Shown here piece by piece: positions 2,850 through 4,315 of a DNA stretch of 64,000 bases. The position numbers and the translations under genes are program-made. The DNA lies in contig CM000150.2 of NCBI GenBank assembly GCA_000004695.1, positions 1,888,001-1,952,000 of the forward strand, given 5' to 3'. Under the pieces are notes generated by a model, which saw only the letters and a list, made by a program, of their open reading frames with translations, was not told where the DNA came from and made no database searches. Position 1 is the first letter of the stretch. Each line of letters starts with the position of its first letter. The stretch comes from Dictyostelium discoideum (lineage: Eukaryota).

Positions 2850-4315
2850 TTAATTTGTTGTTGTTGTTGTTGTTTCCAAATTTAACATTTCTGTATCAGT
2901 TGTTGTTGTTGTTGTTGTTGCTGTAGTGGTACTAGTATTTGATGACATATCTTGATCGGTTGACATTGATGTTGTTAATGTGGTAGTTTGTTCAGTAGTT
3001 GCTGTTGCTGTTGTTGTAGTATCATTATTTGTTGTATCATTTGTTGTTGTTGTTGTTGCTGTTCCTGTTGTTGTTGAAGGTTTTGTTTTCTTTTTTGGAT
3101 TTTTGTTTGGATCTTTTTTTGATTTTCTTTTTTCTTTTTCAGGATTATTTAAAAATATTAATTTTCTATCAATCTTTTTTACAACTTCTAAATCTGGTTT
3201 ATCTGGTACATTTAATAAAACCTGTTTAACTTGATTAATTTTTTCAATCATACCATTTAAAAATTCTTGACCTTTATCTATAAATTTATTTTCTATATAC
3301 CTAAAATTTTTAAAAAAATAAAAATAATTAATTATTTTTCATTTAAATCTTATTTATAATAATAAATTATTATTATTATTATTATTATTATTATTATTAT
3401 TATTATTATTATTATTATTATTATTATTATTATTATTATTATTATTATTATTATTATTATTATTATTATTATTATTATTATTATTATTATTATTATTATT
3501 ATTATTATTATTATTATTATTATTATTATTATTATTAATACAATACATATTAAAACCATCCCAATTTAAATTTAAACAAGCTAATGCAATAATTTGAGGA
3601 TGAAATTCAAAACAACAATCACTAAATAATGATTTTTGAATTGATTTTTTACAAGTTTCCCAAAGAGTATCAAATTTAATAGGTGATACACCATTGGTGT
3701 TATTATAGATTGCAGAGTTATCATTAATATCTAAAATGTAACCATACATTGGTCTAAATGGATGATAAACTATTAGATTGAAATTTAATGATTCTAAAAT
3801 GATAATTTCTAAATTTGTAATATCTGATGGTGATGCTTTAGTAATATTACTATAATAATCGATATCTAAATGATTATCCTCTGTTTTACATGCAATGAAT
3901 AAACATGATAACATCACCAATTTCGCTCCATATTGCATTATACTATTCTTTAAATAAAATCTTTTTATATATATAATTGCTGGTGCCTTTTTAAAAAAAA
4001 AAAAAAAAAAAAAAAAAAAAAAAAAAAAATTAATATCCACAATGAGAGTATGATGATGATGATGAATAAAGGTATATATATACTTACAGATACTTTATCA
4101 GGTAAATTTAAAGCCATTGCAATTTCTAATGTTTTAGTTTCATAATAATGTATTAATGATAATTCATCGTCGGGTGATAGTATATTTGGTTCAGATGATG
4201 GTGTTTTTTCTAAAATCACTTGTTTATGTTGATTATTACATTGTTCTCTTAATTTTTTTAATCCTTCATTATTAAACATCCAATATTTAATTTGTGATGA
4301 TTCATTATATGACAT
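2850..4315 (-). CDS. cycH: Cyclin H (CDK7/CAK partner), modelled with three exons: 4315..4088, 3986..3547 and 3300..2850.
   Basis: The N-terminus MSYNESSQIKYWMFNNEGLKKLREQ aligns to human cyclin H MYHNSSQKRHWTF. The cyclin box KRFYLKNSIMQYGAKLVMLSCLFIACK aligns to [30 protein letters not shown]. The C-terminal exon PDLEVVKKIDRKL aligns to [16 protein letters not shown]. Intron 1 has a GTAAGT donor at 4087 and an AG acceptor at 3987. Intron 2 (3301..3546) is modelled with a weak GTATTG donor and a TTTTAG acceptor, and is the only way to keep the frame into exon 3. Confidence 0.75.
3358..3537. repeat. A perfect (AAT)n microsatellite of about 60 units on the plus strand, (ATT)n on the gene strand, lying inside cycH intron 2.
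   Basis: Direct reading: attattatt repeats uninterrupted over about 180 nt. Confidence 0.9.

Follow-up and report, generated by a model that had tools for sequence, protein, structure and literature searches.

Simple sequence repeats (SSRs) make up more than 11% of the Dictyostelium discoideum genome (PMC3466296), and the introns of this species are 89% A+T, with a median length of 103 nt and a mean of 143 nt (s.d. 158 nt) (PMC2483917). We analyzed a 64,000-nucleotide stretch of this genome (assembly GCA_000004695.1, contig CM000150.2, positions 1,888,001 to 1,952,000), here called the window, in whose coordinates positions are given. The window contains cycH, the gene for cyclin H, and the second intron of this gene carries a perfect AAT microsatellite, (AAT)57. 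This array resembles the non-coding SSRs described in Dictyostelium in its A+T-only triplet motif, its perfection, its location in a 98% A+T intron, the many arrays nearby, and its variation in length between lineages (PMC3466296, PMC2483917). No qualitative difference from them was found; the window holds 45 perfect AAT/ATT runs with five or more units, and this array merely ranks first in length, the next being 35, 34, 27, 25, and 22 units. The feature is a textbook non-coding Dictyostelium SSR. (AAT)57 is very probably a neutral microsatellite that expanded in the unconstrained middle of the last cycH intron, as is ordinary for a repeat-rich genome.

Two other kinds of triplet array were compared with the cycH repeat. 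AAT-encoded poly-Asn tracts have the same motif, and the cycH repeat stands in the Asn frame, by accident, as do other AAT runs of the window within long open reading frames (ORFs). However, the cycH run lies between a conserved donor and a conserved acceptor, is absent in orthologues, and is followed by only three open codons, which argues that it is not translated in the normal product. The GAA repeat in intron 1 of human FXN is likewise a pure triplet array expanded in an intron of an essential gene. In contrast to GAA, the AAT motif has no known structure-forming tendency, its RNA is unstructured, the array is only 172 nt long, and similar expansions are apparently tolerated in a sister lineage.

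The AAT array and the splice sites of cycH intron 2

The array was first sized by Tandem Repeats Finder (TRF), which reported a perfect period-3 array at positions 3366-3537 (57.3 copies, 100% matches). A direct scan gave 172 nt, or 57 units, reading ATT on the plus strand and AAT on the minus strand, which is the strand of the gene; an array of 57 perfect head-to-tail units of a 3-nt motif is a microsatellite. The first-pass annotation of this DNA had described a perfect (AAT)60 of 180 nt; the perfection held, but both counts lowered the number of units. The window is 78.8% A+T and simple repeats are abundant in it. By our own arithmetic, the chance of a match at lag 3 is about 0.33 per base, and 169 such matches in a row have a probability of about 0.33^169 (about 1e-80), so the run did not arise by chance.

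To place the array in the gene, the ORFs were listed and every GT/AG combination was enumerated for cycH, which runs on the minus strand from an ATG at 4315 to a TAA at 2852-2850 and has three exons with a spliced product of 372 aa. Exon 1 (4088-4315) contains codons 1-76 and ends in ...KVS, and its N-terminus is identical in orthologue models P0001-P0003. Intron 1 (3987-4087; 101 nt, phase 0, GTAAGT...AAAAAG) includes a T37 tract at 3993-4029, and its position is kept in D. purpureum and T. lacteum. Exon 2 (3547-3986) contains codons 77-222 plus 2 nt and, according to Pfam, most of both cyclin folds. Intron 2 (3301-3546; 246 nt, phase 2, 98% A+T) separates it from exon 3, the ordered part of which extends from the last base of codon 223 to codon 284 (3117-3300). 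The remainder of exon 3 (2850-3116) encodes a Lys-/Thr-rich tail, residues 285-372, together with the stop codon. The enumeration and the comparisons below confirm this three-exon structure as the predicted gene model.

Intron 2 begins with a GT at 3546-3545 and ends with an AG at 3302-3301 (aat at^GT...AG^g tat, where a caret marks a splice junction). The pair 3546/3302 joins the exons in frame as ...FNM^YIENKF..., which matches the orthologues and the intron-less homologues. The span 3301-3546 given in the first-pass annotation as the phase-2 intron is exactly this intron, and the sequence and the splice enumeration agreed with the donor GTATTG and the acceptor TTTTAG (3301-3306) named there. 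However, the same annotation had called this the only frame-preserving model, and that claim failed, as five more GT/AG pairs keep the frame to the same stop (3556/3294, 3541/3279, 3541/3273, 3556/3279, and 3556/3273). All of these alternatives still leave the repeat within the intron, there being no GT between the repeat and the acceptor. They were rejected because they remove YIENKF, which is conserved in the orthologues, the intron-less homologues, and yeast Ccl1.

The donor GTATTG departs from the consensus GTAAGT at positions +4 to +6, and its weakness was judged solely against that consensus (compare intron 1 in all genomes). The earlier description of the donor as weak stands to this extent, but the site is invariant across eight genomes and would fit a constitutive site equally well. 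Not one C occurs in the whole 246 nt of intron 2, and the branch motif ACTAAT is therefore absent. ACTAAT is the commonest branch hexamer of D. discoideum but is found in only 18.7% of its introns (PMC2483917), so the missing consensus weakens the signal without excluding membership of the U2 type. A U12-type intron was rejected, since the donor has no ATCCTT motif. We also tried an ab initio survey of "unique" GT...AG introns in the window as a sample of donors, which was unusable because of false positives such as GTGGAT at 4040, inside intron 1.

Intron 2 in related genomes

The junction between exons 2 and 3 was examined by a protein search. Models from D. discoideum, D. cf. discoideum, D. 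citrinum, and D. firmibasis share the ...DGFNM^YIENKF... junction and read ...LNLNWDGFNMYIENKF(I/K)DK..., and the cycH junction agreed with the protein models of seven related Dictyostelium genomes. In the genomic DNA of T. lacteum, NFKTYIEYK is encoded continuously, with no intron at this site. A Polysphondylium-like homologue (P0008), carried on intron-less 1.3-kb transcript-like contigs from Logan and JGI, reads LLKSYLETK across the junction, and yeast Ccl1 also aligns over it (YLETKF against YIENKF). In D. purpureum, intron 2 occupies the same codon and phase (ct^GTAAGC...TTTTAG^a), is 74 nt long, and is followed by FIENKFKDK. The contiguous residues in T. lacteum, P0008, and Ccl1, together with the D. 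purpureum intron, indicate that the 3546/3302 junction is the homologous one. The earlier placement of the repeat in an intron, and the junction chosen for it, were thus upheld by the orthologue models, the intron-less homologues, and Ccl1.

Intron 2 was then extracted from D. purpureum (L008) and seven further related genomes (L001-L007); these eight genomes all belong to group 4 of Dictyostelium and have the intron at the same position and in the same phase. In the window it is 246 nt long, with (AAT)57 just after the donor, while in the relatives it is only 74-154 nt long. The two D. discoideum genomes L001 and L002 have introns of 95 nt, with an interrupted 2 + 5 AAT units, and of 74 nt, with 2 units. 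The D. cf. discoideum genome L003 has 114 nt with short interrupted AAT runs, and L004, of the same label, has 98 nt with 9 units. The two D. citrinum introns (L005, 96 nt; L006, 93 nt) have no AAT run at the site and carry (CAT)4-6 further in. The D. firmibasis intron (L007, 154 nt) has (CATT)12 in place of AAT, and the D. purpureum intron has no repeat after the donor. The lengths vary modulo 3, which argues that the segment is not evolving as coding sequence.

Only two blocks of intron 2 are conserved. The first, GTATTGTAT, is the 5' splice-site block (3538-3546), which is invariant in eight of the eight aligned genomes and beyond which the sequence diverges directly. The second, AATAATTAATTATT (3323-3336), precedes the acceptor AG by about 22-35 nt, is common to the introns of the D. 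discoideum (including D. cf. discoideum) and D. citrinum groups, and is likely to be the branch region. Nothing in the interior between the two blocks, repeat included, was conserved among the aligned genomes, and the interior could not be aligned between species. Preservation of the splice-site blocks with turnover of the interior points to a neutral spacer with a lineage-specific expansion. On this comparison, the array appears as a short AAT seed (ATTAATAAT) that expanded in one lineage within that spacer.

The expansion would have arisen most probably by replication slippage. Intron 2 would be an ordinary U2-type GT-AG intron whose working parts are GTATTGTAT, the putative branch region AATAATTAATTATT, and TTTTAG; the repeat sits between these parts and would leave with the intron, which we infer to be spliced efficiently. 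The repeat would lift the length of the intron from about 75-115 nt to 246 nt, within the normal range of the genome; given the genome-wide mean of 143 nt and s.d. of 158 nt, an intron of this length is unremarkable. We also considered a role for the repeat in RNA structure. The minimum free energy of the intron 2 RNA was -14.2 kcal/mol, against -28.8 kcal/mol for shuffled controls (z = +4.1); the intron RNA folds less well than the shuffles, and the structural role was rejected.

A second triplet array was seen in the other cycH intron. In L003 (GCA_054859235.1), intron 1 contains a perfect (ATT)60 of 180 nt (L003:3307-3486) where the window has T37, and the intron is 264 nt long, compared with about 90-100 nt in the others. 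Here a triplet expanded independently, in a different cycH intron and a different lineage. That the same essential gene of another isolate carries (ATT)60 in intron 1 suggests that such expansions are tolerated.

We used the adjacent aminotransferase coding sequence (CDS) to gauge the divergence of these genomes from the window. The identity was 97.3-97.5% for L001, L002, and L004, 95.5% for L003, about 93.6% for D. citrinum, and 90.6% for D. firmibasis. The suggestion that the repeat is hypervariable between strains held between lineages that are 2.5-9% diverged in this neighboring CDS (57 units compared with 0-9) and no further. According to McConnell 2007, as cited in PMC3466296, the microsatellite mutation rate in D. 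discoideum is unusually low (1.1e-7 per repeat per generation).

The same CDS, which encodes an aspartate aminotransferase (window 1432-2712), differs from L001, L002, and L004 at 2.5-2.7% of positions and has no gaps. This divergence is much higher than we would expect among assemblies labelled D. discoideum, a low-diversity species. To judge from these sequences, L001, L002, and L004 may be cryptic lineages, or the window itself may come from a distinct lineage.

The distribution of cycH introns was also recorded. Every genome examined has intron 1. Intron 2 occurs in D. discoideum, D. citrinum, D. firmibasis, and D. purpureum, but T. lacteum (L009:1501-2688) lacks it. A further phase-2 intron, within ...IDRKL^I..., occurs in T. 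lacteum and D. purpureum and not in the window. The public D. purpureum model P0004 (221 aa; L008:3001-4234, GL871336.1) ends by reading 'ctg taa' into intron 2. In the D. purpureum DNA, a good GTAAGC donor stands at 3752 and the acceptor ends at 3825, followed by two more conserved exons, at about 3826-3969 and 4036-4234, which encode FIENKF...IDKKI and YLNK...KKDPNKNPKKK. The P0004 protein is truncated because intron 2 was missed in the model.

The cyclin H product and exon 3

The 372-aa product was first examined by domain and sequence searches. Pfam detected Cyclin_N (residues 64-147, 2.5e-12) and Cyclin_C_2 (residues 151-251, 2.7e-12), both above the curated cut-offs. Against solved structures, phmmer gave 4.9e-32 for Ccl1 and about 5e-29 for cyclin H but only 1e-8 for cyclin C, and a profile search against cyclin H and Ccl1 gave 1e-63 and 1e-48. 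The profile alignment spans residues 2-309 of human cyclin H and 47-392 of Ccl1, with the exon-3 segment placed on the C-terminal helices. The AlphaFold model had a pTM of 0.69, with a pLDDT above 90 for most of residues 20-280, and all of the top 20 Foldseek matches in the PDB were cyclin H or Ccl1 (target-normalised TM-scores 0.76-0.90). On sequence and predicted fold, the host gene is cyclin H, with cyclin H and Ccl1, not other cyclins, as its closest solved relatives, and the name given to it earlier stands.

In human cyclin H (1JKW, 1KXU, 6XBZ) and yeast Ccl1 (6XI8, 7KUE), as in the window protein, Cyclin_N is combined with Cyclin_C_2, and the alignment is near full length with the C-terminal helices included. 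The window protein differs from both in overall sequence (about 25-28% identity), in its long Lys-/Thr-rich disordered tail (residues 285-372), and in Pro78. The C-terminal helix of cyclin H packs back on the N-terminal cyclin fold (PMC6170502). In the AlphaFold model of the window protein, exon 3 contributes three confident C-terminal helices; the helices of this region are at residues 221-228, 234-252, 260-274, and 276-284, and the first of them spans the junction. A further helix, at the N-terminus (residues 16-37), stands outside the cyclin folds, and the pLDDT of these blocks was about 82-96. Among the residues encoded by exon 3, Y224, I266, D267, K269, and L270 are invariant in a nine-sequence alignment that includes a fungal homologue. 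The spliced mRNA would thus encode a 372-aa cyclin H whose fold is completed by the exon-3 helices.

When intron 2 is retained, the exon-2 frame runs through the repeat to a TAA at 3354-3356. The first-pass annotation had read about 60 Asn followed by LLL and a stop; this reading was reproduced (...GFNMYCI, then LLL and TAA at 3356-3354), but with 57 Asn (...MYCI-N57-LLL). The alignment, the profile, and the AlphaFold model agreed with its further claim of truncation before the conserved C-terminal helix: an intron-retained product would lack conserved structural helices.

Two features of the coding sequence differ among genomes. Codon 78 of the window (3981-3983, minus strand) is CCA; the Pro that it encodes (...KVSAPAIIY...) belongs to the first helix of the N-terminal cyclin fold, and the corresponding residue is Thr (ACA, ...SATAI...) in eight amoebozoan and fungal homologues, yeast Ccl1, and human cyclin H. 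Pro78 may reflect either an error in sequencing or a substitution specific to this strain. The Thr-rich tail (window 2853-3116, minus strand) is encoded by ACA, ACT, and ACC repeats and is predicted to be disordered (pLDDT about 30). The total length of cyclin H is 372 aa in the window and 362-368 aa in the other genomes, and, as the length of the tail differs among genomes, cycH also carries a coding repeat polymorphism.

Alternative readings of the repeat

The first-pass annotation had proposed that cycH sits on a splice-dependent switch between full-length cyclin H and a poly-Asn-tailed truncation. Taken as regulated retention, this would mean that the weak donor of intron 2 is skipped, cyclin H is truncated to a form ending in N57-LLL, and the activity of CAK is tuned by splicing. 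The off-consensus donor and the lack of ACTAAT are compatible with this proposal, as are the Asn frame of the repeat, through which retention would give a 286-aa product, and the finding that intron retention, which goes with weak sites, is the commonest form of splice variation among D. discoideum ESTs (PMC2397502). However, in the same EST survey constitutive introns tended to be longer than those retained (PMC2397502), and any retained cycH intron meets a stop, which by itself does not point to regulation. Nor is the retained reading conserved: in nine genomes it adds 64, 15, 11, 22, 16, 4, 4, 7, and 1 residues, all of different sequence. The intron interior holds no conserved element, its RNA is less structured than shuffles, the Asn frame would come up by accident in one case of three, depending on how exon 2 enters the intron, and the donor is invariant across lineages, which fits a working constitutive site. 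The truncated product would be missing helices kept unchanged from amoebae to fungi, so that inactivity is a more plausible outcome for it than a regulatory role. This comparison did not support the switch, which we consider very unlikely. Some leaky retention of intron 2 may occur, given the donor, the missing ACTAAT, and the association of retention with weak sites, but as a generic property of the intron.

The expansion might instead act quantitatively in cis, lowering the efficiency of splicing or transcription, and with it the expression of cycH relative to short-allele strains, without a distinct isoform. In other organisms, expansion of a triplet in an intron can reduce expression, as that of GAA does in human FXN; intron 2 of the window is 2-3 times longer than in every relative, and its donor and branch signals are non-consensus. 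On the other side, a length of 246 nt lies less than one s.d. above the genome mean (PMC2483917), the RNA of the repeat (AAU) is unstructured, and the comparable expansion in cycH intron 1 of another isolate suggests tolerance, so that such an effect seems quite unlikely. If dosage were tuned in this way, the locus would show, in nature, how a repeat in an intron can modulate an essential general transcription factor, and nothing points that way. The combined proposal, that the 57-unit allele and the non-consensus donor and branch make splicing of intron 2 inefficient in this strain, lowering the dosage of the CAK/TFIIH cyclin or yielding a poly-Asn-tailed truncated cyclin H, with repeat length as a heritable tuning knob, is judged highly improbable. 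A coding repeat, with a real protein ending in ...MYCI-N57-LLL and the downstream ORF lying outside cycH, might be expected in a genome in which AAT-encoded poly-Asn is very common and in a window where several long AAT runs stand in the Asn frame of long ORFs, and the D. purpureum model P0004 stops at the same point. However, P0004 runs on into an intron with a good GTAAGC donor, downstream of which conserved exons are present; the repeat is missing or tiny in relatives, only three codons are open past it, and exon 3 is conserved to fungi, yeast, and human and is predicted to fold onto the cyclin core. The comparative data already contradict the coding reading, which retains next to no probability. 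Finally, the repeat might be real but its true length other than 57 units, as an artefact of assembly or consensus, because long perfect repeats are difficult to assemble and to size. Similar perfect runs in independent assemblies ((ATT)60 in L003, (TAA)55 in L005, and (TAA)40 in L004) speak against such an artefact, and a wrong count is unlikely.

Several points weigh against a neutral microsatellite in an ordinary intron. The junctions of the orthologues are gene predictions and not transcripts. A protein collection queried for exact copies of the 372-aa model, the product with intron 2 retained, the ORF of exon 3, and two alternative models gave zero matches, and two metagenome scans, one with the spliced junction and one with exon 2 plus the donor sequence, gave none. 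The donor is off consensus at +4 to +6 and the canonical branch motif is absent, and splicing of intron 2 may be less than complete. Neutrality, moreover, is something we infer from the turnover of the intron interior.

Beyond annotation, the significance of the repeat is small; the analysis confirms the three-exon cycH model, in which the poly-Asn reading is intron read-through and not protein. The same type of read-through error was exposed in the public D. purpureum model, and the length of the array at this site could help to tell Dictyostelium lineages apart. Literature searches found no gene-specific study of Dictyostelium cycH, and a whole-window Rfam scan gave zero matches.

Other repeats were also noted in the window. 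Four long perfect AAT runs, at 40685-40787 (34 units), 17000-17076 (25 units), 60659-60714 (18 units), and 10937-11019 (27 units), are in the Asn frame of long ORFs and probably encode poly-Asn tracts of neighboring genes. The 37-nt A/T homopolymer at 3993-4029, inside cycH intron 1, varies in length among related loci, and so does a T64 homopolymer on the plus strand at 4440-4503, which is intergenic and about 125 nt upstream of the cycH ATG.

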